From NCBI GenBank assembly GCA_965227345.1, contig OZ245755.1, positions 1,141,351 to 1,205,350 of the forward strand: a stretch of DNA of 64,000 bases, read 5' to 3'. The notes under the pieces were generated by a model, which saw only the letters and a list, made by a program, of their open reading frames with translations, ran no database searches and was not told where the DNA came from. The stretch comes from Sphingomonadales bacterium. Lineage in GTDB: Bacteria; Pseudomonadota; Alphaproteobacteria; Sphingomonadales; G965227345. This document shows, piece after piece, positions 5,662 to 58,723 of the stretch. Position 1 is the first letter of the stretch. Every line of letters begins with the position of its first letter. Made by a program: the position numbers and the translations under genes.

Positions 5662-6759
5662 TTAAATGGCCTTGCGGGCAGGTTCCTCCAGCGGGTTCTT
5701 TGATCGGAGACCCGGTCTACCCTTCTCAATTTCCTCGCGCGCCATACTATCCGCAACAAGATTTGTTGCCAGCCCTTTTTTCTGTGCCACCTGAAAAATA
5801 TCCGCAACGGTATCTGCAATACGCTCGATCCGGGCATTAATCCTCGTGACATCATAGTCCCCGGTCACTTCACCCGCCACATTGATGATCCCCCCTGCAT
5901 TAATCACATAGTCAGGAGCAAACAGAATATTACGGGCCAGCAATTCGCGGCCATGTCCCGGGGTTGCCAACTGATTATTGGCCCCGCCGGCAATGACGGA
6001 CGCTTTCAGTTCAGGAATCGTATTGTCATTGATCACACCGCCCAGCGCACAGGGCGCGAACACGTCCACATCCATGCCATGGATCTGATCAACCGGCACT
6101 ACTTCCGCACCAAAGTCACGTACGGCGCGGGCCAGATTATCCGGTGAAATATCGGCAACAAAAAGCGTCGCCCCCGCCTGGTGTAACTCACTGCACAGGT
6201 GATAACCCACATTTCCAACACCCTGCACAGCCACGCGCAAGCCGACGAGGTCGGCCCGGCCAAGCCGGTGTTTCACGGCAGCTTTCAGACCGACGAAAAC
6301 GCCGTGCGCCGTGAAGGGCGATGGATCTCCGCTTGCACTATCCCCTAGTGACAAGCCCGCGACATGGGACGTTTCCTGTGCCACAATTTCCATATCCGCC
6401 ACAGAAACACCAACATCCTCAGCCGTAACATAATTGCCATTCAGTCCTTCTATAAACCTGCCGAAAGCACGCAGAAGTTCGGGCGTTTTGTCCCGTTTCG
6501 GGTCGGCGATGATCACCGACTTGCCGCCCCCCAGCGGAAGCCCCGCCATGGCGTTCTTGTAGCTCATTCCCCGGGACAGGCGCAGCACATCGTGCAAGGC
6601 TTCGTCATCGGAAAAATAGGGCCACATGCGGCACCCGCCGGCAGCAGGCCCAAGATTGGTGTTATGGATCGCGATGATAGCGCGCAAACCGGATTGTGAA
6701 TCATTGCAAAAGACGACCTGTTCATGATCGTCGAATGAAGCGGCATCGAATACCGTCAT
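5662..6759 (-). CDS. leucine (branched-chain amino acid) dehydrogenase, Glu/Leu/Phe/Val dehydrogenase family
   Basis: Catalytic-Lys motif GLPLGGGKSVI and the NAD fold VAVQGVGNVGYHL. At 365 aa it matches LeuDH/ValDH rather than GDH. Confidence 0.85.
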   Translation of the reverse strand: MTVFDAASFDDHEQVVFCNDSQSGLRAIIAIHNTNLGPAAGGCRMWPYFSDDEALHDVLRLSRGMSYKNAMAGLPLGGGKSVIIADPKRDKTPELLRAFGRFIEGLNGNYVTAEDVGVSVADMEIVAQETSHVAGLSLGDSASGDPSPFTAHGVFVGLKAAVKHRLGRADLVGLRVAVQGVGNVGYHLCSELHQAGATLFVADISPDNLARAVRDFGAEVVPVDQIHGMDVDVFAPCALGGVINDNTIPELKASVIAGGANNQLATPGHGRELLARNILFAPDYVINAGGIINVAGEVTGDYDVTRINARIERIADTVADIFQVAQKKGLATNLVADSMAREEIEKGRPGLRSKNPLEEPARKAI

Positions 6760-12009: not shown

Positions 12010-12966
12010 ATGGCCAAGAAATTTGCTTCACAAGCCGATCTCGAAGAAAAACAGGTCAGTTTCACCAAACTGGCAGACAATGCTTATGCCTACACCGCCG
12101 AGGGCGACCCGAACACGGGCGTGATCATTGGCGATGATGGCGTGATGGTGCTGGATACACAGGCCACACCCACCATGGCGCAGGATGTAATCGCCAAAAT
12201 TCGCACCGTGACTGACAAGCCGATCAAATATGTTGTCCTGACCCATTATCACGCCGTTCGCGTGCTGGGAGCCAGCGGCTACGCGCCAAAGGAAATTATT
12301 TCCAGTCAGGATACCTATGACCTGATCGTGGAACGCGGTGCACAGGATTATAAATCAGAAGCCGAGCGTTTCCCTCGCCTGTTCAACGACATTAAAAGCG
12401 TACCCGGCCTGACCTGGCCAACCATGACATTCAAGGGCGAGATGACCATCCACATGGGCAAGACCGAGGTTCGGCTCATGCAGCTGGGTCGCGGCCATAC
12501 CAAGGGCGATACAGTGGCCTGGATGCCAAAGGAAAAGGTCTTGTTCAGCGGTGATCTGGTTGAATATGGCGCCACCCCCTACACAGGCGACGCCTATCTG
12601 AACGACTGGCCGGCAACCCTTGATAATATTGAAAAGCTGGCGCCTGAAAAACTGGTGCCCGGGCGCGGCGACGCACTGACCACTAAAGAAACGGTTCGGG
12701 ATGCGCTGGTCGGCACGCGTGATTTCATTCGCAAAATGTACGGCTCTGTTGAACAGGGCGTGAAAGCAGGCAAGTCTCTGGATCAGATCTACAAGGAAAC
12801 CTACCAGACATTGTCACCGGATTTTGGCCATTGGGTGATTTTCGATCACTGCCTGCCCTTTGATGTGACCCGCGCTTTTGACGAGGCCAGTGGTATTCGC
12901 GATCCTCGTATATGGACCGCAGAGCGTGACAAGGAAATGTGGGAAACACTGGAAAAAGCCGAGTAA
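12010..12966 (+). CDS. MBL-fold metallo-hydrolase family protein
   Basis: Beta-lactamase-fold layout with VVLTHYHAVRV (a degenerate HxHxDH), GRGHTKGDTVAWMP and FSGDLVEYG. Confidence 0.7.
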   Translation: MAKKFASQADLEEKQVSFTKLADNAYAYTAEGDPNTGVIIGDDGVMVLDTQATPTMAQDVIAKIRTVTDKPIKYVVLTHYHAVRVLGASGYAPKEIISSQDTYDLIVERGAQDYKSEAERFPRLFNDIKSVPGLTWPTMTFKGEMTIHMGKTEVRLMQLGRGHTKGDTVAWMPKEKVLFSGDLVEYGATPYTGDAYLNDWPATLDNIEKLAPEKLVPGRGDALTTKETVRDALVGTRDFIRKMYGSVEQGVKAGKSLDQIYKETYQTLSPDFGHWVIFDHCLPFDVTRAFDEASGIRDPRIWTAERDKEMWETLEKAE

Positions 12967-12994
12967 CCCCACACCGTTCAAGCAGGAGCGTCTG

Positions 12995-14785
12995 ATGAGT
13001 GACCCGCTTCAAAGCCCGGCGGAAACAGGTGAACCGGCGATAACAGGTGAACCGGCGGTAACAGGTGAAATTGACACCGCGCCACGCGAAAGCCGGGTGA
13101 CCTTTACCTATCGTCGCCCGGAAGAGCTGGATTCCGGCACCCGCACGCACAAGCCGGTTGTGATTGTGGGGGCTGGCCCCGTGGGCCTGACTGCGGCGAT
13201 TGATTTATCCCGGCGGGGCATAGACTATATTCTGCTGGATGATGATGACACCGTCAGCGTGGGGTCACGCGCCATCTGCTACGCAAAACGGACCCTTGAA
13301 ATATGGGACCGGCTGAATTGCGGCGAAGTAATGCTCGACAAGGGCATTACATGGAACATTGGCCGGGTCTATTTTGGTGACGATACAGACCCGGTCTACA
13401 GCTTTGATCTGCTGCCGGAAGAAGGGCACAAGTTCCCGGCCTTTATCAACCTTCAGCAATATTATTCTGAAGAGTTTCTGGCAACCGCGCTGGAACGCGA
13501 CCATCAGGCCGATATGCGGTTCAAAAGCAAGGTTGTGGGCGTAGATCCACGTGATGATTGTGTGACGCTGACCGTTGAGACCCCCGACGGAAATTACAAG
13601 CTTGATGCTGAATATGTCATAGCCGCCGATGGCTTCCGCAGCCCGATACGCCAGATGATGGGGCTGGATTTTGAAGGCGAGGTTTTCAAGGACCATTTCC
13701 TTATTGCCGATATCAAGATGAAGCAGTCGTTCCCTACCGAACGACGGTTCTGGTTTGACCCGCCCTTCAATCGGGGAGAATCGGCCCTGATCCACAAGCA
13801 ACCTGATGATGTCTGGAGGCTGGATTTCCAGCTGGGCTGGAACATTAACCGGGAAGAAGAAGTAAAGCCTGAAAATGTCACCCCGCGGATCAGGGCCATG
13901 CTGGGGGATGATGTTGACTTTACCTATGAATGGCTCAGTATTTATACCTTTCAATGTCGTCAGCTCAGCCGGTTTGTCCACGGACGGGTAATCTTTGCCG
14001 GCGATTCAGCACATCTGGTATCGCCCTTTGGTGCACGCGGCGCCAACAGCGGGGTTCAGGACGCCGATAATCTTGGCTGGAAACTGGAACTGGTGCTGAA
14101 AGGGCAGGCCCCTGAAGCATTACTGGAAAGCTATAATGAAGAGCGGGTCTTAGCGGCACGGGAAAACATCCTGAATTCTACCCGCAGCACAGATTTCCTC
14201 ACACCCAAAAGCGATGTCAGCCGCTCTTTCCGTGACGCGGTCCTCTCTCTGTCAAAAACCTGTGATTTTGCCCGGAAATTCGTCAACAGCGGACGCCTTT
14301 CTGTGCCTTGTCGCCTGTCGGGTTCATCCCTGAATACAAGTGACGTTGGCACATTCAAGGGCCTTATGACCCCGGGAACAGTCTGCGCGGACGCGCCCTG
14401 CAAAGATGGCGGCACCCCAGCCTGGCTGCTGGAAGAAATGGGACGGCATTCCGGCTTTATACTGCTTTATTTTGCCGGGAACGCCGCACCTTCGCCCGAT
14501 GATCTGGAAATGCTGGAAAAGGCGAAGCAACATACCTTGGCACCCGCTGCTATTATTGTTGCAGACAAAGAACAGATCATACAGGATTTCAACGTTCTGG
14601 AAGATGCAGATGGCCTGATCACCGACAGATATGACGCCACGCCCGGCACCTGCTATCTGATCCGTCCCGATCATCATGTTGCCGCGCGCTGGCGCAAGCT
14701 GGACCCTGTCAGTGTGAACTCCGCACTGGCCACAGCGACCGCAAACCCGGCCGTACAGGAGGCTGCCAATGCCAAAGCATCTTGA
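12995..14785 (+). CDS. FAD-dependent aromatic-ring monooxygenase (PheA/TfdB / MhpA-like)
   Basis: VVIVGAGPVGLTAAIDL, AADGFRSPIRQ and FAGDSAHLVSPFGARGANSGVQDADNLGWKL. Start moved from 12878, which would overlap the MBL gene, to ATG 12995 with an AGGAG SD at 12983-87. Confidence 0.85.
   Translation: MSDPLQSPAETGEPAITGEPAVTGEIDTAPRESRVTFTYRRPEELDSGTRTHKPVVIVGAGPVGLTAAIDLSRRGIDYILLDDDDTVSVGSRAICYAKRTLEIWDRLNCGEVMLDKGITWNIGRVYFGDDTDPVYSFDLLPEEGHKFPAFINLQQYYSEEFLATALERDHQADMRFKSKVVGVDPRDDCVTLTVETPDGNYKLDAEYVIAADGFRSPIRQMMGLDFEGEVFKDHFLIADIKMKQSFPTERRFWFDPPFNRGESALIHKQPDDVWRLDFQLGWNINREEEVKPENVTPRIRAMLGDDVDFTYEWLSIYTFQCRQLSRFVHGRVIFAGDSAHLVSPFGARGANSGVQDADNLGWKLELVLKGQAPEALLESYNEERVLAARENILNSTRSTDFLTPKSDVSRSFRDAVLSLSKTCDFARKFVNSGRLSVPCRLSGSSLNTSDVGTFKGLMTPGTVCADAPCKDGGTPAWLLEEMGRHSGFILLYFAGNAAPSPDDLEMLEKAKQHTLAPAAIIVADKEQIIQDFNVLEDADGLITDRYDATPGTCYLIRPDHHVAARWRKLDPVSVNSALATATANPAVQEAANAKAS
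13025..13069 (+). repeat. 18-nt in-frame tandem repeat, 2.5 copies (TGEPAI/TGEPAV/TGE)
   Basis: ACAGGTGAACCGGCGATA / ACAGGTGAACCGGCGGTA / ACAGGTGAA, read directly. It lies in the N-terminal extension of the monooxygenase, before the FAD fold. Confidence 0.9.
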
Positions 14786-16841: not shown

Positions 16842-17420
16842 GTGGAAGGCGCATTACCAACGCCGGACGGATGTCCCGCTCTGGTCCTGAATGCCGATTA
16901 TCAGCCCCTGAGCTACTTTCCCCTGTCGCTCTGGTCATGGCAGACTGTTGTAAAAGCTGTTTTTCTGGACCGCGTGGATATTGTATCTGAATATGAACGC
17001 TCCATCCGGTCACCCAGCTTCGAACTAAAATTACCCAGTGTTATCGCGCTGAAGAAATATATCAAGCCAGCCACTCACCCGGCCTTTACACGCTTCAATC
17101 TGTTCCTGCGGGATCGTTTTACCTGTCAGTATTGCGGGCAGGCCCATACCAGCCGAAACAATCACGAGCTGACATTCGACCATGTCATCCCCCGTGTGGA
17201 TGGCGGGCGCACGACATGGGAAAATGTAGCCGCAGCCTGTTCCCCCTGCAATTTACGCAAAGGCGGCAGAACACCAGCAGAAGCACATATGGAGCTTCAA
17301 AGCCAGCCCTACCGCCCAACCGTTCATCAGTTGCAGGCTAACGGACGCTTCTTTCCGCCGAATTACATGCACGAAAGCTGGCGGGATTATTTATACTGGG
17401 ACAGTGTTCTGGAGCCCTGA
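16842..17420 (+). CDS. HNH endonuclease-domain protein
   Basis: GTG start. HNH/zinc motif FTCQYCG...LTFDHVIPRVDGGRTTWENVAAACSPCNLRKG, plus the N-terminal LNADYQPL motif of a widespread ~190-aa family. Confidence 0.8.
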   Translation: MEGALPTPDGCPALVLNADYQPLSYFPLSLWSWQTVVKAVFLDRVDIVSEYERSIRSPSFELKLPSVIALKKYIKPATHPAFTRFNLFLRDRFTCQYCGQAHTSRNNHELTFDHVIPRVDGGRTTWENVAAACSPCNLRKGGRTPAEAHMELQSQPYRPTVHQLQANGRFFPPNYMHESWRDYLYWDSVLEP

Positions 17421-28005: not shown

Positions 28006-28275
28006 CTAGTGCACCGCGACCCGGCGCGGCTCTTCTTCATCAAACTCGAAATAGACGTTCATGGCGCTGCGAATTTCTTCCCAAAGTTCATACCCCTCGT
28101 CGTCGCCCAGCACACGCATGCGATCAAGCGCTGAATCAGCAAAAATCAGGGCCGTATCACCGTGACTGCGCAGCAAGTTGCGCGCGACCATATCGAAAAT
28201 CGGGCCGGGATCGAAGTCATCATATTCCATCAGGGCTCTTAACGCAGTGATGGCCTCTATGGCTGGGTCGGTCAT
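28006..28275 (-). CDS. small acidic hypothetical protein (89 aa)
   Basis: ORF with ordinary composition. No family recognised and no strong SD seen. Confidence 0.4.
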   Translation of the reverse strand: MTDPAIEAITALRALMEYDDFDPGPIFDMVARNLLRSHGDTALIFADSALDRMRVLGDDEGYELWEEIRSAMNVYFEFDEEEPRRVAVH

Positions 28276-28438: not shown

Positions 28439-29104
28439 CTAGTTCACCCTTAACAGATCAACCAGTTCGCCGACACCACTGCCCCGCGGCACGGTAACCA
28501 GTGGCAAGTCGGGCAGGAAGCGCCGAATGGTCTCGGCCGTTTCATCAATCGGTACCGGACTGGTTTCTGATTCCGTCACAACAATGGCCGCAATCACCAG
28601 CCCGTGGCGACGCATGGCCCGGGCCGTGGCAAGCGTATGACTGATGGTGCCCAGATAGGAACCGACCACCAGCAGGGATGGCAAGCCCAACGCGCCAATC
28701 CAGTCCGCCACAACATGCTTCTCATCCAAAGGCACAAAAGCCCCGCCCACACCCTCTATCAGCAACAGATCCTCGGGTCCCTGAGCACATTCCCGACAGA
28801 ATTGCAAAAGACCGGGATAATCCACCGACGTTTCTTCACGTCTTGCGGCCATATCCGGCGAAAGCGCCTGCTTGTAGCGCCAAGGTGAAATGCTGTCGAT
28901 CTGCGCCTGATCAAACGGTCTGCCTAGCGCCTGAATGATATTCGCTGTGTCGCTGGTCGCGGCCGAGCCTTCATCAAATCCGCTGATCAGGGGCTTGATA
29001 GCCCGCACCTTGCGCCCCCTTGTCAACGCCTCGCGTATCACGGCTGCAGTGATATAGGTCTTGCCAATATCTGTACCCGTAGAGGTTACAAAATAGCCTC
29101 GCAT
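28439..29104 (-). CDS. bioD: dethiobiotin synthase
   Basis: N-terminal P-loop FVTSTGTDIGKTY; 221 aa; starts 3 nt after the bioF stop. Confidence 0.85.
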   Translation of the reverse strand: MRGYFVTSTGTDIGKTYITAAVIREALTRGRKVRAIKPLISGFDEGSAATSDTANIIQALGRPFDQAQIDSISPWRYKQALSPDMAARREETSVDYPGLLQFCRECAQGPEDLLLIEGVGGAFVPLDEKHVVADWIGALGLPSLLVVGSYLGTISHTLATARAMRRHGLVIAAIVVTESETSPVPIDETAETIRRFLPDLPLVTVPRGSGVGELVDLLRVN

Positions 29105-29107
29105 TCT

Positions 29108-30271
29108 CTATCCCCCTAACGGTCTTATACCAAGTTTGCGCATGGCATCTGCAAGCCTGACAACATCTTCATCGCGGTGATTGGCCGTAAAAGTCGTCCG
29201 TAACCGCGCCGTGCCGTCTGGTACAGTCGGGGGGCGGATGGCCGAAATCAGAAACCCCTGATCCCGCAGTTTTAGCGACATCTGCATGGCCTTGTTTGCG
29301 TCGCCGACGATAATCGGCACGATGCAGGTCACGGGTTCCGGCAGATTCATTTCACGACAGAACAACCGGGCCTTTTCCACCGGCCTTTGTCGCAATGCCG
29401 GATCGCTTTCAATAATCGCAAGCGCGGCAATGCTGGCGGCAATCACAGCAGGCGGCAGACCGGTTGTGAATATCAGGCTGCGCGCCCTGTTGCGCATAAA
29501 ATCAATTACTTTTTTTGACGCACACAAATAGCCGCCGTAGCTGCCCACAGCCTTTGACAAGGTGCCCATCTGCAGGGGCACACGGGCTTTTTGGCCGTTG
29601 GTAAAGCTGCTGCCACGGCCATCGCCCAGAATACCGATACCATGAGCGTCATCCGTCATCAGCCAGGCGTCATACTTTTCGGCCAGTGGCACCAGTTCAT
29701 CCAGCGGTGCCAGATCACCATCCATGCTGAACACGCCGTCGGTCAACACCATGGCGCGGGGGTGGTTTCCACGATGATCCCGCAACAATGTTTCCAGATG
29801 CGCCATATCATTGTGGCGAAAAACATGACAGCTGCCATGTGATAACCGGGCACCTGCAAAAATGCAGGCATGTGCCAGCTCATCGACAAAAACAACATCC
29901 TGTTCGCTGATCAGGGCGGGGATGATGCCAATATTCGCCATATAGCCGCTACCAAAGACAAGCGCGTCCTCAGCACCCTTCAATTTGGCGAGACGACTTT
30001 CCAGCTCGCTGTAGAGCGGATGACTGCCTGTCACAAGACGCGAAGCACCGGCACCGGCACCATAGCGATCAATGGCCGCCTGTGCGCCTGCCTTCACATC
30101 GGGATGCTGGCTCAGGTTCAGGTAATCATTGCAGCAAAAGGAAATCAGATGCGCATCGCCACGATCCGCCGACCCGTCTTCATGGCGGTCGGTCGTCACA
30201 ATTTCGCGGTACAGACCTTCGTCTGTCAGCTTATCCAGCTTTGCCGTGACAAATTTTTCCAGTGAGTCCAT
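29108..30271 (-). CDS. bioF: 8-amino-7-oxononanoate synthase
   Basis: Alpha-oxoamine synthase family: CCNDYLNLSQHP, DDAHGIG, and the PLP-Lys context GTLSKAVGSYGG. Confidence 0.85.
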   Translation of the reverse strand: MDSLEKFVTAKLDKLTDEGLYREIVTTDRHEDGSADRGDAHLISFCCNDYLNLSQHPDVKAGAQAAIDRYGAGAGASRLVTGSHPLYSELESRLAKLKGAEDALVFGSGYMANIGIIPALISEQDVVFVDELAHACIFAGARLSHGSCHVFRHNDMAHLETLLRDHRGNHPRAMVLTDGVFSMDGDLAPLDELVPLAEKYDAWLMTDDAHGIGILGDGRGSSFTNGQKARVPLQMGTLSKAVGSYGGYLCASKKVIDFMRNRARSLIFTTGLPPAVIAASIAALAIIESDPALRQRPVEKARLFCREMNLPEPVTCIVPIIVGDANKAMQMSLKLRDQGFLISAIRPPTVPDGTARLRTTFTANHRDEDVVRLADAMRKLGIRPLGG

Positions 30272-30383
30272 GAAATATTAAGTCTCTCGGGCCTATAAAC
30301 CCGCTGGTTGGAAACGGGCTGCATATTGGCAGGATCAGCAGTTCTGTCAACGACGCTTTTTGAAAAAGCAGTCCGCTTTTCGC

Positions 30384-30421
30384 CTTGACTTGGCAATTGC
30401 GGTCAGAGACTGTGCGGTCAA
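30384..30421 (+). promoter_or_regulatory. copy A of a duplicated promoter/operator-like element (CTTGACT-N15-GAGACTGTGCGGNCAA)
   Basis: CTTGACT at 30384-90, then 15 nt, then GAGACTGTGCGG at 30406-17, then TCAA. It ends 25 nt before the TTG start of the AsnB-like gene. It can be read as -35 CTTGAC, a 16-nt spacer and -10 GAGACT. Confidence 0.45.
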
Positions 30422-30446
30422 GCCACCGGGATCAGGAGAAAAAACA

Positions 30447-32171
30447 TTGGGCGCCTTTGCCATCATCCGCGGTAAAAAAAACCGGCAGCGGGATACGTTG
30501 GAAGAGAAAATCGCGTCATCCCTGCACAAGCAGGGATTTGCCGCGCCTGACCTTATCGATCATCCCCATGCGCTGGTGTTATTGTGCCCCAAAATGGTCT
30601 CGAGCGAGACGAACCTTGTGCGCCTTGATAATGGTGATTTTGCCTTTTACACCGGCACCCTGATATATAGGCATTTGACCGGCATGCCAGCCCTGAACGA
30701 GATTTTGGCCCTGCCGGGCAGCACATTGCCCGAGCGCGCCGACCTTGCCGGTTGCTTTACCCTTGTGGTCGCAAAAGGCAAAACAATCCATATTATGGTG
30801 GATCCGCTTGGCACATACAGGCTTTACCATCATGAAAATGACAAGGTCTGGTCAAGTTCATTTCTGGCTGTTGCCGCCACAGTAGACAAGCCCCGGATCA
30901 ATGACCATGAAGTCTATGAATATGTTTTTGACGGTGCGACCTATGGCACAAAAACCGTCCTGCAACAGGTCAGCATGCTTGCCCCCGATACCGCGGTCAG
31001 CCTGAACCGGGCCCTGACCAGAAAAACATTGCCATCCCTTTCCTCGCCATCCATGCCCGCAGACCGGGCCGGCATGACAAGCCATCATGTCGACCTGCTG
31101 CGCGACCTGTTCGGACGTACCGTCAAGGCGTTTGGTGGCAAGATAGATATGGCGCTGACCGCCGGATATGACAGCCGGCTGATGCTGGCACTATGCAGGG
31201 ACGCAGGCATAACACCGCGTCTTCATGTATACGGACCGCCGGATGACACTGATGTGAAGGTCGCACTTGCCATTGGCAAGGCAGAAGGTCTTGACGTTAA
31301 ACATGTCGACAAATCTATCAAAAAGCCCCTTGAAGCAGAAAGCTTCGCCGACATTGTGAAAGCCCAGTTTTATGCGTTTGACGGCTGCCCGCCAGACGGC
31401 GTATTGGGCAACGGTGCCGATCTGGCGACCCGGAGGGAGCGCTGCGAAGACAATTATCTGTCGCTGAACGGCGGCTGCGGCGAAATCTATCGGAACTTTT
31501 TTTACCTGCCTGATCGATCCTTCAGTGTGCGGGAAATTTTGTGGTCATTCTGGAGCCAGTTTGACCCCAAAAGCTGCAGAGACGGATTTGACGAAGATCA
31601 GTATATCTGCACACTTGCCCAAAAGGCCCTGACGGACCTGAATGGACATCACCAAACGCTGACACGGGCAGAGGTTGAATATCTGTATCCGGTTTTCCGT
31701 GGGCGCTACTGGACGGCACGCAATACGTGCGTCAATCTGCGCTTTGGCGACGCCGCAACGCCGTTCCTGGACGCCTCGCTGGTCAGGCCTGCGGCCGATA
31801 TTCCGATGCCAATCAAATATGCCGGTGCCTTTGAGGCCGCCCTTGTAGAGGCCATCAGCCCGGCACTTGCGGCCCATCCTTCAGATTATGGGCACAGCTT
31901 TGCCGACCCCCCCAATCTGAAACACAGATTCTCGGAATGTGCGACGCGCATTCGCCCCGCATTTCTCCGCAGGCTAACCTTTCGGTTGCGGAACCGGTAC
32001 CGCCCGGCACCCCTGCCCGAATATCTGACAGCCAAATTCACAGACAGGCTGTTTCCCGACGGCATCCGGTATATGGATCGGTATTTTCATCGGGATCAAA
32101 TTCACGACGCCGGACAGATGAATCGCATTCTGACACTCGAATATCTGTTCCAGACGGTTAAAGCAGAGTAG
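30447..32171 (+). CDS. asparagine-synthetase-family protein lacking the N-terminal catalytic Cys (paralog A)
   Basis: Start set to TTG 30447 (AGGAG SD 8 nt upstream) because paralog B starts at the equivalent TTG-GAFAIIR. AsnB-order motifs: GCFTLVV, DPLGTYRLYH, VWSSSFLA, PP-loop position LTAGYDSR, and C-terminal PFLDASLVRPAADIP. Confidence 0.7.
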   Translation: MGAFAIIRGKKNRQRDTLEEKIASSLHKQGFAAPDLIDHPHALVLLCPKMVSSETNLVRLDNGDFAFYTGTLIYRHLTGMPALNEILALPGSTLPERADLAGCFTLVVAKGKTIHIMVDPLGTYRLYHHENDKVWSSSFLAVAATVDKPRINDHEVYEYVFDGATYGTKTVLQQVSMLAPDTAVSLNRALTRKTLPSLSSPSMPADRAGMTSHHVDLLRDLFGRTVKAFGGKIDMALTAGYDSRLMLALCRDAGITPRLHVYGPPDDTDVKVALAIGKAEGLDVKHVDKSIKKPLEAESFADIVKAQFYAFDGCPPDGVLGNGADLATRRERCEDNYLSLNGGCGEIYRNFFYLPDRSFSVREILWSFWSQFDPKSCRDGFDEDQYICTLAQKALTDLNGHHQTLTRAEVEYLYPVFRGRYWTARNTCVNLRFGDAATPFLDASLVRPAADIPMPIKYAGAFEAALVEAISPALAAHPSDYGHSFADPPNLKHRFSECATRIRPAFLRRLTFRLRNRYRPAPLPEYLTAKFTDRLFPDGIRYMDRYFHRDQIHDAGQMNRILTLEYLFQTVKAE

Positions 32172-32188
32172 TATAAACGCCATTTCAA

Positions 32189-32226
32189 CTTGACTCAGGG
32201 CGCTGTCTCGGAGACTGTGCGGCCAA
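32189..32226 (+). promoter_or_regulatory. copy B of the duplicated promoter/operator-like element
   Basis: CTTGACT at 32189-95, then 15 nt, then GAGACTGTGCGG at 32211-22, then CCAA. It begins 18 nt after the paralog-A stop and ends 32 nt before the bioB ATG. Confidence 0.45.
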
Positions 32227-32258
32227 ATACAAGTCAACAGGATGGAGACTTTGGATAG

Positions 32259-33272
32259 ATGACTGTCGCCCAGACGATACCCGCAAACGGAACCCCCGTT
32301 GATACACCTGCAGATCTGGCAAACGATGGCCTGCGCCATGACTGGACGAGACCGGAAATTGAAGCACTGTTTGATCTGCCCTTCAATGATCTGATGTTTC
32401 AGGCCCAAAGTCTGCATCGCCAGAATTTCGACGCCAACAAGGTGCAGCTGAGCCAGCTGATCTCTATCAAGACCGGCGGCTGCCCGGAAGACTGCAAATA
32501 TTGTCCGCAATCTTCGCATTTTGAAACATCTGTTGATGCTGCCAAGCTGATGGAAGTTGACACCGTACTGGCCGACGCGGCCAAGGCGCAAGCCGCCGGG
32601 GCCAGTCGTTATTGTATGGGGGCCGCCTGGCGGTCGCCCAAGGATCGGGACATGGAAAAAGTCTGCGCCATGATCGAAGGCGTCAAGGCCATGGGCATGG
32701 AAACATGTGTAACGCTGGGCATGCTGAATGATTCCCAGGCGAAGCGGCTAAAGCAATCCGGGCTTGATTATTACAATCACAACATCGACACGTCGGAAGA
32801 GTTTTACGGCGAGATCATCACCACCCGTTGTTATGAAGATCGACTGGAAACCCTGTCTCATGTGCGTGACGCGGGCATTAATGTCTGCTGTGGCGGCATT
32901 GTCGGTATGGGCGAAGGACGCGGCGACCGTGCCGGTATGCTTGAAACACTGGCCAATATGCCCAAGCATCCCGAAAGCGTGCCCATTAATCTGCTGGTAC
33001 AGGTAGAAGGCACACCGATGTTCGGACAGGACGCGCTAGATCCGTTTGAATTCGTCCGCACCATTGCTGTCGCCCGCATCATGATGCCGCATAGCTTTGT
33101 TCGCCTGTCCGCCGGACGGGAACATATGAGCGACGAATTGCAGGCGCTCACCTTCCTTGCCGGTGCCAATTCGATTTTTTACGGCGAACAATTGCTGACC
33201 ACGCCCAACCCTGCCGAAAACAGCGACATCGCCCTGTTTGACCGCCTTGGGATTGCGCCGCTCAAGCTATAG
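32259..33272 (+). CDS. bioB: biotin synthase
   Basis: Radical-SAM motif [22 protein letters not shown], and GGIVGMGE. Confidence 0.95.
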
Positions 33273-33281
33273 GCGTTATTT

Positions 33282-34571
33282 ATGGCCGACGACATCAAGC
33301 AGGTCCCTGACTGGTACACAGACGGCTACCAACATATTTGGCTGCCCTATACCCAAATGCAGACAGCTCCCGATGCCCTGCCCGTGGCCTCTACCGAGGG
33401 CGTTCGCATCCAACTGACCGACGGCCAGGAACTGATTGATGGCATTGCCAGCTGGTGGACCGCCTGCCACGGCTATAATCATCCCCATATCCGGAAAGCC
33501 ATGATGTCACAGATCGACACCATGTCCCATGTTATGCTGGGCGGGCTGGTGCATGAACCGGCTGTAAGGCTTGCCAAACGGTTGGCCGACATTCTCCCGG
33601 GTGACCTGAACCATGTATTCTTTTCCGAATCCGGGTCTGTGTCAGTCGAAATCGCCATGAAAATGGCAGTACAATACTGGCTGAACAAGGGCGAGCATGG
33701 CCATACACGCTTTGTCAGTTTCCGGTCCGGCTATCACGGTGACACATCCGCCGCCATGTCGGTCTGTGATCCGGAAGACGGCATGCACAAACATTTTGCC
33801 GGCTATCTGACAGAGCAATTCATTGTCGATTTTCCCCGCACGCCTGGCGCGCTGGATATTTTTGACAATTTACTAAAAGACAAGCGGGGCGAGATTGCGG
33901 CCGTCATGGTCGAACCTCTGGTGCAGGGGGCGGGGGGGATGAAAATGCATCATCCGCACGAACTGGCCGCCATGGCTGAAATTTGCAAGCGCCATGACGT
34001 GTTGCTGATTGCCGACGAAATTTTTACGGGCTTCGGGCGCACCGGCAGCATGTTCGCGTGTGAACAGGCGGGCATTGTGCCGGATATCATGTGTCTGGGC
34101 AAAGCGCTAACCGGCGGAGTTGCCCCGATGGCAGCAACCGTTGCCACTGACCGGGTTTACGATGCATTTCTGTCTGACGACCCCTCCAGGGCCTTTATGC
34201 ACGGGCCCACCTTCATGGCCAACCCCCTGACATGTGCGGCTGCAAATGCCTCACTTGACCTGTTTGAAAATGAACCGCGACTGGAGCAGGTCAGACGGAT
34301 CGAGGGCCATTTAAGCCAGTCGATGGAACAATTCCGCGACCTGCCGGGCGTTCTGGATGTGCGGGTGAAAGGTGCCGTCGGGGCCATTGAGCTTGACCGG
34401 ATTGTGGACGCAACCTGGATGAAAGATCGTTTTCGTGAAGAAGGCGTCTGGATCAGACCCGTTGGGAACACTATATATCTGACACCATCATTTACGATTG
34501 AATCTGCTGATCTGGCCAGACTGACCAATGCTATCGGCACTATATTGCAGGAAAGACCATGGATCAGATAA
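33282..34571 (+). CDS. bioA: adenosylmethionine-8-amino-7-oxononanoate aminotransferase
   Basis: Class-III aminotransferase: SWWTACHGYNHP, LIADEIFTGFGRTG, and the PLP-Lys context CLGKALTGG. Confidence 0.9.
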   Translation: MADDIKQVPDWYTDGYQHIWLPYTQMQTAPDALPVASTEGVRIQLTDGQELIDGIASWWTACHGYNHPHIRKAMMSQIDTMSHVMLGGLVHEPAVRLAKRLADILPGDLNHVFFSESGSVSVEIAMKMAVQYWLNKGEHGHTRFVSFRSGYHGDTSAAMSVCDPEDGMHKHFAGYLTEQFIVDFPRTPGALDIFDNLLKDKRGEIAAVMVEPLVQGAGGMKMHHPHELAAMAEICKRHDVLLIADEIFTGFGRTGSMFACEQAGIVPDIMCLGKALTGGVAPMAATVATDRVYDAFLSDDPSRAFMHGPTFMANPLTCAAANASLDLFENEPRLEQVRRIEGHLSQSMEQFRDLPGVLDVRVKGAVGAIELDRIVDATWMKDRFREEGVWIRPVGNTIYLTPSFTIESADLARLTNAIGTILQERPWIR

Positions 34572-36355
34572 CCAACCCTTATACAGCCCGTCTTGAGAAC
34601 CTGCGCAGTGAAATGACCCGTCTGGGATTGTCCGGATATGTCGTTGCCCATACGGACGAGCACCGCAGCGAATATACCCCCGATTATGCCCAGCGGCTGG
34701 CCTGGCTGACCGGCTTTACCGGCTCTGCCGGGCAAGCCGTAGTGCTTGCCGACAAAGCCGCCATGTTTGTTGACGGGCGCTATACACTCCAGGTTCAGGC
34801 ACAGGTTGATGCGGCGAACTACACCTTTCTGCATCTGACCGAAAACCCGCCGCAGGAATGGATCGTTGAAAATGCCCGTGCAGGCGACCGTATTGGCTTT
34901 GACCCCTGGCTTCATACAATCAACTGGGTGAATGATCTGCGGGAAGGTCTTGCGACCAGGGGGGCCGAGCTGGTCGTCGTCGACACCAACCCCGTTGATG
35001 TTATCTGGCACGATCAACCCTCCCCTTCCACACGTCCGGCCATACCGCATGATATTCAATTTGCAGGCAAAAGTTCAGCCGACAAGCGCCAGGAGATTGC
35101 CGAAAACATAAAAAAGGCCGGGGCTGATGCCGCTGTATTTACGGCGCTTGATTCCATTGCCTGGCTATTCAACATTCGCGGCACTGACGTTGACCACACG
35201 CCTCTGGTGATCTCTTTTGCCATTCTGCACGCTGACGCTTCTGCCGATCTGTTTATCGATCCGAAGAAAATCACAGATGAGGTGCGAAGCCATCTGGGTG
35301 ATCAGGTTCGCCTGCACCCCAAATCTGATTTCATGACCGGATTGAATGCCCTTGGCCCAACCAAAAAAACCGTGCTTGTAGACCCCGTCAGTGCCTCGGC
35401 TGCCGTATTCAACATTCTTGAAAGCGCAGGCGTCATCATCAAGCGCCAGACGGACCTGTGCCAGTTGCCAAAAGCTGTAAAGAACGCCACAGAGGTCGAA
35501 GGCACGCGGGCAGCCCATCTGCGTGATGGCGCGGCATTAACACGGTTTCTGGCCTTTATGGCCGAACACGGGCCTAAAGGCACGCTTGATGAAGTCGCCG
35601 CGTCAGATCAGCTGGAAACTTTCCGTCGGGAAACCAACCAGTTAAAAGACCTGAGCTTTGACAGCATTTCAGGAGCAGGGCCCAATGGTGCCATTGTCCA
35701 TTATCGCGCCATGCCGGAGAGCGCCCGCAAGATTGAAAGCGGCATACTTTATTTAATCGACAGTGGCGGCCAGTATCTGGACGGGACAACCGATGTCACC
35801 CGCACCATCGCCATTGGCACCCCCGGCGCCGAAGAAAAAGACCGGTTCACAAGGGTATTGAAAGGACATATCGCCATTGCCACCGCCCGGTTCCCCAAGG
35901 GAACATCGGGCGCACAGCTTGATGCACTGGCGCGCATGCCACTGTGGCAGGCCGGCCTGAACTACGATCATGGCACAGGCCACGGTGTTGGCAGCTATCT
36001 GGGCGTTCACGAGGGCCCGCAAGGCATTGCCAAATCATATACGACAACACCGCTGCAACCCGGCATGATCGTCTCTAACGAACCCGGCTACTACAAGACG
36101 GGCCATTACGGCATCCGGATTGAAAATCTTGTTGTTGTTCAGGAAGCCGACAAGAGCAAGGGCGAGATCCCCGTTTTCGCGTTTGAAACATTGACGCTTG
36201 CACCTATAGACACAAATCTGATTGATCGGTCCCTGCTAACCGACGACGAAGCCGACTGGCTGAACACTTATCACGCCCGTGTAGCAGAGGTTATCACCCC
36301 GCTTGTCGATGCGAAAACAGCTGCATGGCTGGCACAGGCAACGAAGCCCGTTTAG
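34559..36355 (+). CDS. pepP: Xaa-Pro aminopeptidase (aminopeptidase P, M24B)
   Basis: Pita-bread metal ligands in DSGGQYLDGTTDVTRT, HGTGHGVG, SNEPGYY and IRIENL. The ATG overlaps the bioA stop by 13 nt. Confidence 0.85.
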   Translation: MDQITNPYTARLENLRSEMTRLGLSGYVVAHTDEHRSEYTPDYAQRLAWLTGFTGSAGQAVVLADKAAMFVDGRYTLQVQAQVDAANYTFLHLTENPPQEWIVENARAGDRIGFDPWLHTINWVNDLREGLATRGAELVVVDTNPVDVIWHDQPSPSTRPAIPHDIQFAGKSSADKRQEIAENIKKAGADAAVFTALDSIAWLFNIRGTDVDHTPLVISFAILHADASADLFIDPKKITDEVRSHLGDQVRLHPKSDFMTGLNALGPTKKTVLVDPVSASAAVFNILESAGVIIKRQTDLCQLPKAVKNATEVEGTRAAHLRDGAALTRFLAFMAEHGPKGTLDEVAASDQLETFRRETNQLKDLSFDSISGAGPNGAIVHYRAMPESARKIESGILYLIDSGGQYLDGTTDVTRTIAIGTPGAEEKDRFTRVLKGHIAIATARFPKGTSGAQLDALARMPLWQAGLNYDHGTGHGVGSYLGVHEGPQGIAKSYTTTPLQPGMIVSNEPGYYKTGHYGIRIENLVVVQEADKSKGEIPVFAFETLTLAPIDTNLIDRSLLTDDEADWLNTYHARVAEVITPLVDAKTAAWLAQATKPV

Positions 36356-36424: not shown

Positions 36425-38176
36425 TTGGGCGCATTTGCCATTATTCGCTATCCAAAAGGGGTGCGCCGCAATCTTGCCGAACAAAAAGTCAGGGCGTCAT
36501 TTGCCCGGCAGGGATTTCCCGCGCTGCGGTCCATTACCCGTGAACATCTGCTGATCTTGCATTGCCCCAAGATATTGGGCGGGGCAACTCAGGTTATTCA
36601 CAGGGAAGACGGCAGCTTTGCGCTTTATACAGGCACATTGTTTTACAAAAACCTGACAGGCCGCAAGGCGCTTGAGGCGTTGCTCCTGCTGGACCCGCCC
36701 AAATATCCCCCGCCGGGCGATCTGAGCGGATGCTTTGCCCTGATCATAAGCACGCCCGCCTACGGGTTGCGGCTGATGCGCGACCCGATGGACATCTACA
36801 AGATTTACAAGGATCAGCAGGGCCGGGTCTGGAGCAGCTCTTTCCTCGCCCTTCTGGAAAGTATCAGCAACCCCTCTGTCAACCATCAGTCCGCCTGTGA
36901 ATATGTGTTCACCGGTGCGGTCTTTGGCACAGATACGCTGATCGAACAGATATCAACGACAGAGGCTCTGACCCTGTATCAAATTGGCACCAATGTCACC
37001 CCCTGCACCCGTCACAAGCTGATGATATTTCCACCGCCGCCACGCCCGCTGCAGGATGTCGTCTCTGAGAACCTGAGATTATTACGCCGCCGGATCAGCA
37101 TGATCAGGGACACCTGTCAGAACGACATCGATATCGAGCTCATGCCGGGGCCGGATACGCGACTGCTGCTCGCGCTGATGCTGGAGGACGACGCCATACC
37201 GCGCCTGCATTACAAGTCGCCTTTCGAGCCAACCCATCCGACACACCAGTTGAATACCCTTCTTCATGCGGCGGGCGATCGCGCCTGTGCCATCAGCGAC
37301 GACGATATCATAACAGGTCCCGGCAGCCCCACGGGTGAAGACCTGGCTTTGGATCTGGAAAAGACATTCCAGCGCCACGACGGCTGCCCCACAAGTGGTA
37401 TCATGGAGTTGGCAACGGGCACCCGTGAACCTGACCTGCGGTTTAAAAACAATTTTCTAAGCCTGACAGCCGATGGCGGGGGTATCTACCGGAAAATGAT
37501 GGACCTGTCCTCCGGCCCGGCGAAGCTGAAAAATGTGCTGGCCCATTTTCAGCGCAATGTCGACCCCGCCGCCTGTACCCACCGGTTCTCGGAACAGAAA
37601 TACATTCAAAATCTGGAACAGAAGGTTGCCAGAATTTTCCCCCGGGCAAGCCACCTGCACCCGGCCCAGACGGAATATCTTTATGCCGGCTTTCACGGAC
37701 GGCACTGGATTGGCCATAATGTCAGTCTGGACCAGCGTTTCGGCAATGCCTTGCCGCTGTATCTGGATGAAACACTTGTCCGGTCCGCGCTGAAAATCCC
37801 GATTGAGATGAAGAAAGACGGGCGGATTCAGCTTGAAATGATCCGGGCCGTGGAACGCGAATTTCCCGAGATAGAGCTGCCAGCACACCATATACCTCCG
37901 GCCCCGGACCGCTCGTTCAGCCAGCGCCTGAAGGCCTGGCTATCGCGCGCAACACCGCTGGTGGCCCGGCGATTATCCGCCCGGGTTCACAATCGGCTGT
38001 CGCCACCGGATCTTCCGGCTCACCTTTCTGCCGACAACTGGAACAGGGCCCTGCCCGAAGGCACGCCCCATATTGATCATTTGTTTCACAAGGATAAATT
38101 GTGTGATCCGGCGCAACTTGATCGGGCCCTGACCCTTGAATATCTTTGCCAGTCCCGGCGTGATATCCGGTTTTAA
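36425..38176 (+). CDS. asparagine-synthetase-family protein lacking the N-terminal catalytic Cys (paralog B, more degenerate PP-loop)
   Basis: TTG start with GGAGG 5 nt upstream. GAFAIIR, GCFALII, DPMDIYKIYK, VWSSSFLA, PP-loop position LMPGPDTR, and LYLDETLVRSALKIP. 39 of the first 86 aligned residues are identical to paralog A by hand alignment. Confidence 0.7.
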   Translation: MGAFAIIRYPKGVRRNLAEQKVRASFARQGFPALRSITREHLLILHCPKILGGATQVIHREDGSFALYTGTLFYKNLTGRKALEALLLLDPPKYPPPGDLSGCFALIISTPAYGLRLMRDPMDIYKIYKDQQGRVWSSSFLALLESISNPSVNHQSACEYVFTGAVFGTDTLIEQISTTEALTLYQIGTNVTPCTRHKLMIFPPPPRPLQDVVSENLRLLRRRISMIRDTCQNDIDIELMPGPDTRLLLALMLEDDAIPRLHYKSPFEPTHPTHQLNTLLHAAGDRACAISDDDIITGPGSPTGEDLALDLEKTFQRHDGCPTSGIMELATGTREPDLRFKNNFLSLTADGGGIYRKMMDLSSGPAKLKNVLAHFQRNVDPAACTHRFSEQKYIQNLEQKVARIFPRASHLHPAQTEYLYAGFHGRHWIGHNVSLDQRFGNALPLYLDETLVRSALKIPIEMKKDGRIQLEMIRAVEREFPEIELPAHHIPPAPDRSFSQRLKAWLSRATPLVARRLSARVHNRLSPPDLPAHLSADNWNRALPEGTPHIDHLFHKDKLCDPAQLDRALTLEYLCQSRRDIRF

Positions 38177-39954: not shown

Positions 39955-42126
39955 ATGCGCTGTAACGGAAAATCCAAAGCAATAAAGGCTCATCTTCTTT
40001 CTGCAACAATACTTGGTTTGGGCTTTACGACGTCCCTGCCCAACGCCACATGGGCCGCATCAGATTTTGTAGCCGAAGAAATTACGATAACAGCACGCCT
40101 CAGGGAAGAATCTCTTCAAGATGTCCCTGTTGCCGTCTCGGCTTTTTCAGGCCTCCAACTCGAAAAACAAAATATAGGGGACGCACGAGATCTCATCGGA
40201 CGGGTTCCGGGCCTCTTTTTCAGTCAGAACCAATCATTTGGTCCTTCCAAGACCGAAACTTACATTGTTATGCGAGGTGTCGGAGCCACGTCAGCGATTG
40301 AACCGGCAGTTGCTGTGTTTCTGGATGGCGTCTACATGCCGAAAATGATGTTTGATCTGGATTTTCTGGACCTTCAGCGGATGGAGGTCCTTCGCGGGCC
40401 TCAAGGCGCATTATTCGGCCGGAACACACAAGGAGGCGCACTCAACCTTGTCACACGCAAGCCAGACGACGAGCTGCTGGCCAGAACGGCAATAGAAGTT
40501 GATGATTTTAATACGCTGAAAATAAAGGGCTCGGTTTCTGGTCCCCTCAAGGAAGGCAAACTTTTTGTCGGCATGTCAGGCCAGTTCGAACGAACAGACG
40601 GTTATATTGATAATGCCACCCTTGGGATCAATCAGGATGATGCCGAGAGAGCCGCATTTCGCACGACCTTGAGGGCCTTGCCCAGCGATGCACTGGAAGT
40701 CATTCTGGTCGGTGGCTTTGGCAAAACCTGGGGAGGACAGCTGGGGGCTGGTGTACCAGAAGGCTCAAATGACTATGTTGTTTTTGACAATGATGTACGG
40801 GATATAAAAGATGACATTTACAATGCATCCCTGACCGTTAACTGGGATCTTGAGTTTGCCACACTGACCTCTATTACAGGCGGCGTTAAAACAAACATCG
40901 AAGCCTACTGGGATTGGGATGGCGGCGCTGACGCGAGCGGCAATTTTCAGCTTCAGAAAATCAAACAATCCCAGGTTTCGGAAGAATTGCGGCTAGCCTC
41001 AAACCCTGTTAACGAAAAATTTGACTGGTTAGCCGGGGCATATATTTTCAGATCTGTATATGACCAAGACAGGGATTTTGGCCTCGTTGACGGTACCGGC
41101 TCAACCTTCCCACCCTTATTTAATGCGAACAATGTTGTGGATGAACAGGCCCGCTTCGTCAATAAAGGGATCGCGCTTTTCGGTCAGGCAACCTACCGCC
41201 CCATGCAGCAGCTCGACCTTACCGTGGGGGCACGATATTCCCGCGAGAAAGTCAACTCGCGCCAATATGGTGAAGTAACGGTAATTGGGCTTGGTTCGAG
41301 CGAGGTTTTTGATGTGAGAGCAGATGATACTTACTCTCGTCTGTCACCCATGGCGTCTGTCGCTTACCGATGGTCTGATGACTTCATGACATATGCCACC
41401 GTCGCAGAAGGCTTCAAATCCGGAGGGTTCCAGAAATACCCTGCTAGCGAACTGGCCGCAGGCATACCTTTTGACAATGAAATTTCGCTTAATTACGAGC
41501 TCGGATTCAAGAGCAACTTCCTGGAAAACCGTGTCACCCTCAATGCCGCCGCATACATTATCAAGGTCAAAAAACAGCAGCTTGGCACGATTCGTGAAAT
41601 CAATAACATTCCGGTAGAATCGATCGCGAACGTTGGCAAGTCCACGAACAAGGGTTTTGAAGTCGAAGCTGTGGTGCGGCCTGCAACCGGCCTGACCATG
41701 AGTGGAGCGCTATCCTATGTCGATGCTCAATTTGATGAATTTCTGAATGAAAGTACGGGACGCGACCGGGCAGGAGAACGCATTCCCTATGTTCCTAAAT
41801 GGACTGGGTCTGCCCTGATCGAATACCGTCATGCAGTCGGTGAAAGTGCCAATCTGACGTGGGGAATTGAATACCGGTACGTCGGCGCCCACCTGGCAGG
41901 AAATGGAACTGCACCTTTTGATCCCTTCTTCGATATAAAGTCTTATGATGTTTTTGACGCCAATGTTCGACTGGAAATGGAAAAGTGGGAATTTGTGCTA
42001 TTTGCCGACAATCTCTTCGACGAATTTAACGTGATGAAAAAATGGGAAGCACCTTTTCAGGCCCAGGTCTTCGATACCCCAACAGCACCAAGGCGCGTTG
42101 GGTTAAGGGTTATCTATAACTGGTAG
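39955..42126 (+). CDS. TonB-dependent receptor (cassette 1)
   Basis: Signal peptide; plug domain EEITITARLREESLQDVPVAVSAF...RVPGL...MRGV; 22-strand-sized barrel; C-terminus RVGLRVIYNW. Confidence 0.9.
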   Translation: MRCNGKSKAIKAHLLSATILGLGFTTSLPNATWAASDFVAEEITITARLREESLQDVPVAVSAFSGLQLEKQNIGDARDLIGRVPGLFFSQNQSFGPSKTETYIVMRGVGATSAIEPAVAVFLDGVYMPKMMFDLDFLDLQRMEVLRGPQGALFGRNTQGGALNLVTRKPDDELLARTAIEVDDFNTLKIKGSVSGPLKEGKLFVGMSGQFERTDGYIDNATLGINQDDAERAAFRTTLRALPSDALEVILVGGFGKTWGGQLGAGVPEGSNDYVVFDNDVRDIKDDIYNASLTVNWDLEFATLTSITGGVKTNIEAYWDWDGGADASGNFQLQKIKQSQVSEELRLASNPVNEKFDWLAGAYIFRSVYDQDRDFGLVDGTGSTFPPLFNANNVVDEQARFVNKGIALFGQATYRPMQQLDLTVGARYSREKVNSRQYGEVTVIGLGSSEVFDVRADDTYSRLSPMASVAYRWSDDFMTYATVAEGFKSGGFQKYPASELAAGIPFDNEISLNYELGFKSNFLENRVTLNAAAYIIKVKKQQLGTIREINNIPVESIANVGKSTNKGFEVEAVVRPATGLTMSGALSYVDAQFDEFLNESTGRDRAGERIPYVPKWTGSALIEYRHAVGESANLTWGIEYRYVGAHLAGNGTAPFDPFFDIKSYDVFDANVRLEMEKWEFVLFADNLFDEFNVMKKWEAPFQAQVFDTPTAPRRVGLRVIYNW

Positions 42127-58135: not shown

Positions 58136-58723
58136 GACCTGCTGCCCGAACCGTGTGGCAAGACACTGACCAGAATGGCAGGGATCAAGGCTCAGGTCGG
58201 CTACAAACGCCGCCCTGGCAAGTATGGCGGCAGACCGTCAATGGCTGTAGACAATACTCTGGCGCGCCAATTCGATGTCACTGCACCCAACACAGCCTGG
58301 GTCACCGATATCACCTACATCAAGACCTGTGAGGGCTTTGCCTATCTGGCTGTGGTGATTGACCTCTTCTCCCGACGTGTTGTTGGCTGGGCCATGCAAG
58401 GCCGCCAGACCACGGATCTTGTTCTGCAAGCGTTGCTCATGGCCGTCTGGCGGAGAAAGCCAGCGGGAAAAGTCCTGGTGCATTCAGACCAGGGGGCGCA
58501 ATTCACCAGCATCGACTGGGCGTCGTTCATGAAGCAACATCATCTGCAACACAGCATGATCCGACGGGGAAACTGTCATGACAATGCGGTCGCGGAAAAC
58601 TTCTTCAGCCTGCTGAAGCGAGAGCGTATCCGGCGCAGAACATACAGGACCAGAGAGGAGTCAAGATCACATGTGCGGGGAAGACAAGGTTTTCAGGGGG
58701 TGGGAAAATCTCACTCGGATTGA
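58136..58723 (+). pseudogene. IS3-family transposase (OrfB, DDE/rve core) relic, truncated at both ends
   Basis: The frame opens after TGA at 58133. AGIKAQVGYKRRPG...PNTAWVTDITYIKT...LAVVIDLFSRRVVGW...HSDQGAQFTS...RRGNCHDNAVAENFFSLLKRE is typical of IS3 OrfB. The N-terminal HTH part and OrfA are missing. Similarity is lost after ...TYRTREE (~58660). No terminal inverted repeats were identified. Confidence 0.75.

Follow-up and report, generated by a model that had tools for sequence, protein, structure and literature searches.

RpoD promoters of Sinorhizobium meliloti reportedly follow the consensus CTTGAC-N17-CTATAT, promoters of the rrnB P1 type are said to have a G+C-rich discriminator that starts with GC and is tied to stringent control, and the operator consensus of the biotin regulator BioR is reportedly TTATMKATAA. 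Operators of BioR, a GntR-family protein, occur at the bio operons of Agrobacterium, Brucella and Paracoccus (example site TTATAGATA; PMC4554459). In Escherichia coli, the promoters of the divergent bioA and bioBFCD units overlap a single palindromic operator of ~40 bp, bioO, which is bound by BirA, and Alphaproteobacteria are without a DNA-binding BirA (PMC5640590). Here, we describe an element that is found twice in the biotin locus of a Sphingomonadales bacterium (assembly GCA_965227345.1, contig OZ245755.1, forward-strand positions 1,141,351 to 1,205,350), within a stretch of 64,000 nucleotides referred to as the window and numbered from its first letter. The element consists of CTTGACT followed by the 12-mer GAGACTGTGCGG, and stands once before bioB and once before an AsnB-like gene (paralog A). 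Each copy would be a sigma70-type core promoter, derived from the ancestral promoter of bioB-bioA-M24 and duplicated alongside the insertion of the AsnB-like gene, a reading to which we assign a probability of about 0.78. The inserted gene and bioB would then each own a copy of the ancestral bioB promoter.

The two copies resemble alphaproteobacterial RpoD promoters in their conserved CTTGAC -35, 17-nt spacing, weak -10 in which A at -11 and T at -7 are retained, and short 5′ untranslated region (UTR), but differ in that GACTGT is far from the -10 consensus and the stretch from -17 to -5 is unusually invariant in this subclade. As in E. coli, the biotin genes form two divergent units that share one intergenic region, whereas here ~25–130 nt of non-conserved DNA separate the promoters and an operator common to both was not seen. 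No long palindrome extends over both promoters, and inverted copies of the -35 word were found at only three of the eight sites aligned below, in contrast to the palindrome expected of a BirA/bioO-type operator. BioR systems share with this locus a host among the Alphaproteobacteria and targets that include bioB, yet the 12-mer is G+C-rich and not a TTATMKATAA palindrome, and no match to the BioR box within two mismatches was found in either bio intergenic region (30272–30446 and 32172–32258). An earlier note on this DNA, made from the letters alone, had set the element apart from both kinds of operator, and these comparisons agree. As in the rrnB P1 type, the -10 of both the bioB and the bioF promoter is always followed directly by G (-6) and C (-5), a resemblance of sequence only.

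The Repeated Element in the Window

The heptamer CTTGACT was read at 30384–30390 (copy A) and 32189–32195 (copy B), and exactly 15 nt after it the 12-mer GAGACTGTGCGG occupies 30406–30417 and 32211–32222, followed by one variable base (T in copy A, C in copy B) and then by CAA in both copies. The spacers between these identical ends agree at 3 of 15 positions, two of which (TC at -17/-16) belong to the conserved block. Both the identical 12-mer at equal spacing from CTTGACT, before the AsnB-like gene and before bioB, and the unrelated spacers were as the earlier note had described them.

No third copy of the 12-mer occurs in the window at zero or one mismatch, and the gapped 19-base pattern CTTGACT-N15-GAGACTGTGCGG has just these two matches even with three mismatches, against a post hoc expectation of 0.02. 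When all exact 12-mer pairs accompanied by an exact 7-mer in register and no more than 40 nt away were counted without bias, there were 0.61 pairs per window in Markov-simulated windows and four in the real window, where the other three comprised one tandem coding repeat and two that look like chance. Because ~0.6 such pairs are expected per window, the repeat taken alone is weak evidence and not significant, and the same rate is what speaks for a chance repeat without function. We give that explanation almost no weight: the element recurs at the same position in seven independent genomes with unalignable flanks, among them Govanella unica and uncultured relatives whose BioB is 74–85% identical, and chance is excluded because the element is conserved at the orthologous position. 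Both copies lie 25–35 nt upstream of the starts of two adjacent same-strand genes, and to judge from the sequences compared, it is position together with orthologous conservation that carries the case above chance.

Conservation at Orthologous bioB Loci

An exact scan for CTTGAC-N15-17-GAGACTGTGCGG covered 185,579 species genomes, the source genome not being among them. The scan returned 32 single matches, where ~50 would be expected by chance according to a rough hand estimate, and only one of the 32 lay beside a bio gene. This locus, L015, belongs to an alphaproteobacterial metagenome-assembled genome in which CTTGACT and the 15-nt spacing are exact and the element stands 23 nt upstream of bioB-bioA; its BioB and BioA are 74 and 62% identical to those of the source genome. 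The match in L027 (Parvularculaceae) was unrelated to biotin. Five Gemmatimonadaceae genomes (L017, L019–L022) have CTTGACG-N15-GAGACTGTGCGG in common inside a longer homologous stretch, also unrelated to biotin; these matches are one conserved sequence, and the scan matches are therefore not all independent. Among 80 metagenomic bioB loci with BioB identities of ≤71%, the motif was not found within four mismatches, these loci being too distant to help, and it was absent from L116 (P0122), which has a G+C-rich bioB in a different context.

Closer relatives were found by protein search, and their contigs were then compared. They share a conserved neighbourhood, with TauE, Alph_Pro_TM, DsbD_TM, a small open reading frame (ORF), bioD and bioF on one side and the divergent bioB, bioA and M24 on the other. 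A single intergenic region lies between bioF and bioB in every relative examined, apart from L015, where the contig stops a short way upstream of the motif. This region has exactly one copy of the element in the following loci (with BioB identity):

L117/118, BioB 85%: CTTGACTtgaacccctgtctcgGAGACTGTGCCG
L119, BioB 80%: CTTGACTtgacatcctgtctcgGAGACTGTGCCG
L120/121, BioB 80%: CTTGACTtgactgccggtctcgGAGACTGTGCCC
L122, BioB 76%: CTTGACTtgggatagcgccttgTGGACTGTGCGC
L123, Govanella unica (Emcibacterales), BioB 78%: CTTGACTtgaggcaccggctcaGCGACGGTGCGG

The order bioB-bioA-M24 was kept in L119, L120 and L122–L127, the relatives whose fetched DNA reaches that far, and the intergenic DNA outside the conserved blocks could not be aligned among relatives. 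The 12-mer varies to TGGACTGTGCGC in L122 and to GCGACGGTGCGG in L123, with GAGACT broken and GACkGT kept. At the equivalent place, Emcibacter (L127) and L124–L126 have CTTGACA-N17-AAGGGT, in which A at -11 and T at -7 are kept in a different -10 sequence. Conservation of the motif at orthologous loci, a point raised in the earlier note, was thus found, the element standing upstream of bioB in six further distinct lineages. From these comparisons, the element reads as the promoter from which bioB-bioA-M24 was ancestrally transcribed in a subclade of Emcibacterales-like Alphaproteobacteria.

Proposed Promoter Architecture

Copies A and B were aligned with the sites of L015, L117, L119, L120, L122 and L123, eight sites in all. 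The two copies in the window were delimited as follows, the discriminators and predicted starts being taken from the sequence and the eight-site alignment:

30377–30421, plus strand: promoter copy A, with T-rich TTTTC at 30377–30381 (about -45), -35 TTGACT at 30385–30390, 17-nt spacer and -10 GACTGT at 30408–30413
From 30414, plus strand: copy A discriminator GCGGTC(A), predicted start at A 30420/30421
32182–32226, plus strand: promoter copy B, with T-rich ATTTC at 32182–32186 (about -45), -35 TTGACT at 32190–32195, 17-nt spacer and -10 GACTGT at 32213–32218
From 32219, plus strand: copy B discriminator GCGGCC(A), predicted start at A 32225/32226

The invariant columns were TT, CTTGACT, a T twelve bases on, GAC, GTGC and an A five bases later, and in a promoter whose spacer is 17 nt long they correspond to -35, -17, -12 to -10, -8 to -5 and +1/+2. 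TTGACT, which matches TTGACA at five of six bases, is invariant at 8/8 sites, as is the distance of 17 nt from TTGACT to GACkGT. All eight sites likewise keep A at -11 and T at -7, two bases that the Emcibacter-type AAGGGT retains as well; the bases at -17 (T) and -14 (G), which fall where an extended -10 or '-16 region' would lie, were largely kept. The discriminator reads GCsG, and the invariant A lies 8 nt past the -10 hexamer. In the window and in the six further lineages, the -10 lies on the strand of the gene, its end 27–57 nt upstream of the start codon. The 12-mer resolves into a predicted spacer end GA, -10 hexamer GACTGT and discriminator GCGG, and the predicted starts would give 5′ UTRs of ~26 and ~33 nt for copies A and B. 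The spacer of copy B ends CTGTCTCGGA, like those of its closest relatives, and its 3′ half, CTGTCTCG, is identical in L117 and L119 and one base off in L120.

The earlier note had proposed a sigma70-type promoter with a 16-nt spacer, GAGACT as the -10 and GTGCGG as discriminator or operator. The -35, geometry, orientation and conservation bear out such a promoter, but the proposed -10 was 2 nt out of register: GAGACT reads TGGACT in L122 and GCGACG in L123, losing the critical A or T, and because it varies there while GACkGT is invariant, the hexamer was shifted to GACkGT. The spacer is 17 nt, and a G+C-rich discriminator was retained, corrected to GCGG. Sequence, conservation and geometry were read directly from the sites, and it is from these that we infer the use of sigma70 and the positions of the starts.

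A promoter for an alternative sigma factor, either of the extracytoplasmic function (ECF) or RpoE-like kind (GAACTT-N16-TCnGA) or RpoH-like (CTTGAA-N13-15-CCCCAT), was considered very unlikely. L117 and L119 read TGAACTTGACT...TCTCGGA, resembling the AlgU/RpoE consensus, and ECF promoters typically show both of their blocks strongly conserved. However, the AAC of the ECF -35 is not kept (GAAC, CAAC, CGCC in copy A, CGTC in L015 and L123, ATGC in L122), whereas CTTGACT is invariant; there is no CCCCAT-like -10, and the geometry fits sigma70 exactly. The sigma54, RpoH, ECF, IscR and LexA consensus sequences, compared by eye, did not fit the invariant positions either.

A leader RNA (riboswitch or attenuator) common to paralog A and bioB is hardly credible. 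Potential pairing was noted (CUUGAC...GUCAAG in copy A, UUGACU...AGUCAA in copy B), but Rfam scans were empty at the gathering threshold and at E≤1, folding was no better than that of shuffles (z = +0.27 and +0.42) and RNAalifold gave zero consensus pairs over the eight sites. Moreover, the palindrome as a hairpin would have a 1-nt loop, and the only 27–57 nt between the -10 and the start codons are not conserved. The inverted -35 word (GTCAAG/AGTCAA) was seen just downstream of the -10 in copy A (30417–30422), in copy B (32232–32237) and in L120, where it is a triple tandem, GTCAAGTCAAGTCAAG, at ~5973–5988; its presence at three of eight sites compares with 0.58 expected (P ~0.02).

Beside the sigma70-type promoter proposed for each copy, the intergenic region next to bioF contains a second, divergent promoter:

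30321–30350, minus strand: bioF-bioD promoter, with -35 TTGACA (plus-strand TGTCAA at 30345–30350) and -10 CAATAT (plus-strand ATATTG at 30323–30328), then GC

With a spacer of 16 nt and TG at -15/-14, TTGACA-N16-CAATAT has the sequence of a canonical promoter and is assigned to bioF-bioD on that basis. The window, L117, L119 and L120 have TTGACA-N16-CAATAT-GC without a difference, and L122 and L123 have TTGACT...CAAGAT-GC in its place. The conserved block, CTGCCAATATGC, spans about -16 to -5. Because the bioF promoter shows it too, conservation of an extended -10 is a property of promoters here and not by itself the sign of an operator. Copy A adjoins this conserved bioF promoter, like the bioB promoter in relatives. 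AT-rich palindromes were also observed between the divergent -35s, namely GCTTTTTGAAAAAGC (window 30355–30369), GGTTTTATAGAAAACC (Govanella L123, ~4870–4890, with a BioR-like box at one mismatch inside it), AGTTCTTTTTGAACT (L117, ~5915–5930) and CTATGGTTATCATAG (L015, ~4631–4645, minus strand); the four have no common sequence.

Origin of the Two Copies

The genes around the two copies are arranged as follows:

28439–29104, minus strand: bioD, divergent from the bioB side
29108–30271, minus strand: bioF, divergent from the bioB side
30447–32171, plus strand: AsnB-like paralog A, 574 aa, TTG start, between the bioB promoter region and bioB
32259–33272, plus strand: bioB, ATG start; copy B would serve bioB-bioA-M24
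33282–34571, plus strand: bioA, of the bioB-bioA-M24 operon
34559–36355, plus strand: M24 peptidase gene, of the bioB-bioA-M24 operon
36425–38176, plus strand: AsnB-like paralog B, then a tRNA

Paralog A was taken to start at TTG 30447 and not at TTG 30360, because both paralogs (34% identical) begin MGAFAIIR, the database gene call in the source genome is 574 aa long and a Shine-Dalgarno sequence, AGGAGA (30434–30439), lies 7 nt upstream of 30447. The earlier note was right to reject 30360 as the start, although the codon there is TTG and not ATG. With the start at TTG 30447, copy A lies between genes and 26 nt upstream of that codon; copy B is separated from the bioB ATG by 33 nt. The start codons 26–33 nt past both copies are preceded by a Shine-Dalgarno sequence.

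No AsnB-like gene was found in the bio locus of any relative examined. Given the single promoter of the relatives and the lack of any gene between their bioF and bioB, paralog A appears to have been inserted in the source lineage. The gene would have entered between the ancestral bioB promoter region and bioB, and the promoter of ~50 bp (-45 to +2) would have ended up on both sides of it, copy A driving paralog A and copy B leaving bioB with a promoter to itself. Once duplicated, the two copies would have stayed identical only at the bases that RNA polymerase needs while the spacers drifted apart, and for this reason the spacers may now look unrelated. The single copy and the missing gene were observed directly in the relatives, and we infer from them the way in which the duplication happened.

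Each copy retains part of the ancestral arrangement. Copy B still has the ancestral sequence in the 3′ half of its spacer (CTGTCTCG) and, upstream, the TTTCAA context; copy A stands in the ancestral place by the bioF promoter and, like L015 and L122, carries the extension CTTGACTTGG. GCGGyCAA is common to copies A and B, the relatives having GCCG, GCCC or GCGC, which fits a paralogous origin of the copies within this genome. The contrast drawn in the earlier note, of a functional site rather than a sequence duplication, is correct in that the site appears functional, but the contrast itself was false, given that relatives have one copy and no AsnB-like gene: a functional site was duplicated.

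Elsewhere, homologues of paralog A (≤55% identity) lie in polysaccharide/exosortase-like loci with AMP-ligase, acyl carrier protein, hydrolase and Wzy_C genes, and paralog A has no conserved link to biotin. Its G+C content at third codon positions is 0.61, compared to 0.59–0.63 in its neighbours, which suggests that the insertion was not recent. Because no convincing terminator was found between paralog A and copy B in the window, transcripts from copy A are likely to read through into bioB. Tandem duplication of the block from bioB to paralog B, followed by deletion, was considered and judged unlikely, with paralogs A and B 34% identical and homologues of paralog A at 55% identity elsewhere.

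Several points weigh against a duplicated sigma70-type promoter. The -10 GACTGT matches TATAAT at only two of six bases, and a consensus promoter scan calls nothing in 30100–32400. The transcription starts are predictions, made from the invariant A 8 nt after the hexamer, and the conserved block extends a little beyond a minimal -10. The low identity of paralogs A and B makes a simple recent tandem duplication of the block unlikely, and a palindrome overlapping the promoter is present in four lineages, with a ~1% chance of random origin by a rough hand estimate.

What the locus yields is modest: bioB and bioF promoters defined by comparison in a poorly studied alphaproteobacterial group, and what appears to be a clean example of promoter duplication with gene insertion, in which only the bases contacted by RNA polymerase survive.

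Palindrome and Biotin Regulation

One modest lead remains, a candidate operator that overlaps the -10 of copy B:

32205–32215, no strand assigned: 11-bp palindrome GTCTCgGAGAC, which in copy B spans -20 to -10

The palindrome is perfect in copy B, L117/118, L119 and L120/121 and was found only at these bioB promoters; by hand count, the arm pairs kept are 4/5 in L015, 3/5 in L123 and 2/5 in both copy A and L122. A repressor might bind TCrGAGACTGTGC, and especially the palindrome, as well, occluding the -10 in response to biotin or another signal, which would be compatible with the promoter. Such an overlapping operator seems unlikely, if worth considering. It would be in keeping with an entire palindrome in copy B, L117, L119 and L120, whereas the first spacer half is not perfectly conserved, with the four arm pairs of L015, with the degenerate palindrome in copy A, the promoter of a non-biotin gene, and with the absence of a BioR box from the bio promoters of the window; the lack of a DNA-binding BirA in Alphaproteobacteria leaves room for another biotin regulator. 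However, L122, L123 and copy A have lost parts of the palindrome and kept the promoter bases, and the bioF promoter is without a similar site, so that bioF and bioD would escape control. No further copy of the palindrome or element was found in the 64 kb or in the flanks of the relatives, no regulator gene is conserved beside the bio genes, and the conserved span is the contact zone of RNA polymerase. Less probable still is that the block from -20 to -5 (GTCTCgGAGAC plus TGTGC) is the operator of a new repressor of biotin synthesis in a BioR-box-free Emcibacterales-like subclade, and that copy A shed the left arm because paralog A does not need control.

The suggestion in the earlier note that a biotin-responsive regulator may target the 12-mer found no support: the span from -17 to -5 corresponds to holoenzyme contacts, the bioF -10 block is equally conserved with a different sequence, and there is no linked regulator gene. 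There is no evidence here for a new biotin regulator. By its sequence, the element is to be regarded as an ordinary, functional promoter that was duplicated when the gene was inserted, and not as a novel operator.

No GntR, BirA or bioY gene was present among the ~28 window ORFs scanned, and none of bioC, bioH, bioZ, bioW, bioY and birA was found beside bioFD/bioBA among these ORFs; the window gives no evident sign of the route to the pimeloyl precursor. The only exact BioR box in the window, TTATCTATAA, occurs at 42110–42119, in the last codons of a TonB-dependent receptor gene (39955–42126) and upstream of a GMC oxidoreductase gene, and is most likely due to chance. Govanella (L123) is the only relative with a BioR-like box at one mismatch, which lies between the promoters and outside the element.

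Neighbouring Genes and Other Features of the Window

The AsnB-like paralogs (30447–32171 and 36425–38176) had no Pfam match and weak NCBIfam matches to asparagine synthase and macrolactam cyclase. Both begin MGAF, so the nucleophilic Cys2 of AsnB is missing. Only in the source genome, and not in the relatives examined, do they stand on either side of the bioBA-M24 operon. The M24 gene (aminopeptidase P/creatinase-like) follows bioA in the window, L119, L120 and L122–L127, a conserved linkage to the biotin genes; it overlaps or abuts bioA in the window and in L119–L123, and is separated from it by a gap of ~75–125 nt in L124–L127.

A small ORF lies just downstream of bioD on the same strand in the window (28006–28275, minus strand), L117 (3537–3851), L119 (3482–3766), L120 (3446–3862), L122 (2646–2909) and L123 (2573–2854). 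The products are 87–138 aa long and 33–58% identical, with an invariant C-terminal His and a sub-threshold match to DUF6961 only.

Elsewhere in the window, an 18-nt tandem repeat, AACAGGTGAACCGGCGrT, is present in ~3 copies at ~13020–13075, near the 5′ end of an ORF at 12878–14785 (FAD_binding_3 monooxygenase-like). An integrase-core (rve) ORF fragment at 58175–58723 and an HNH endonuclease ORF at 16842–17420 suggest traces of mobile elements.

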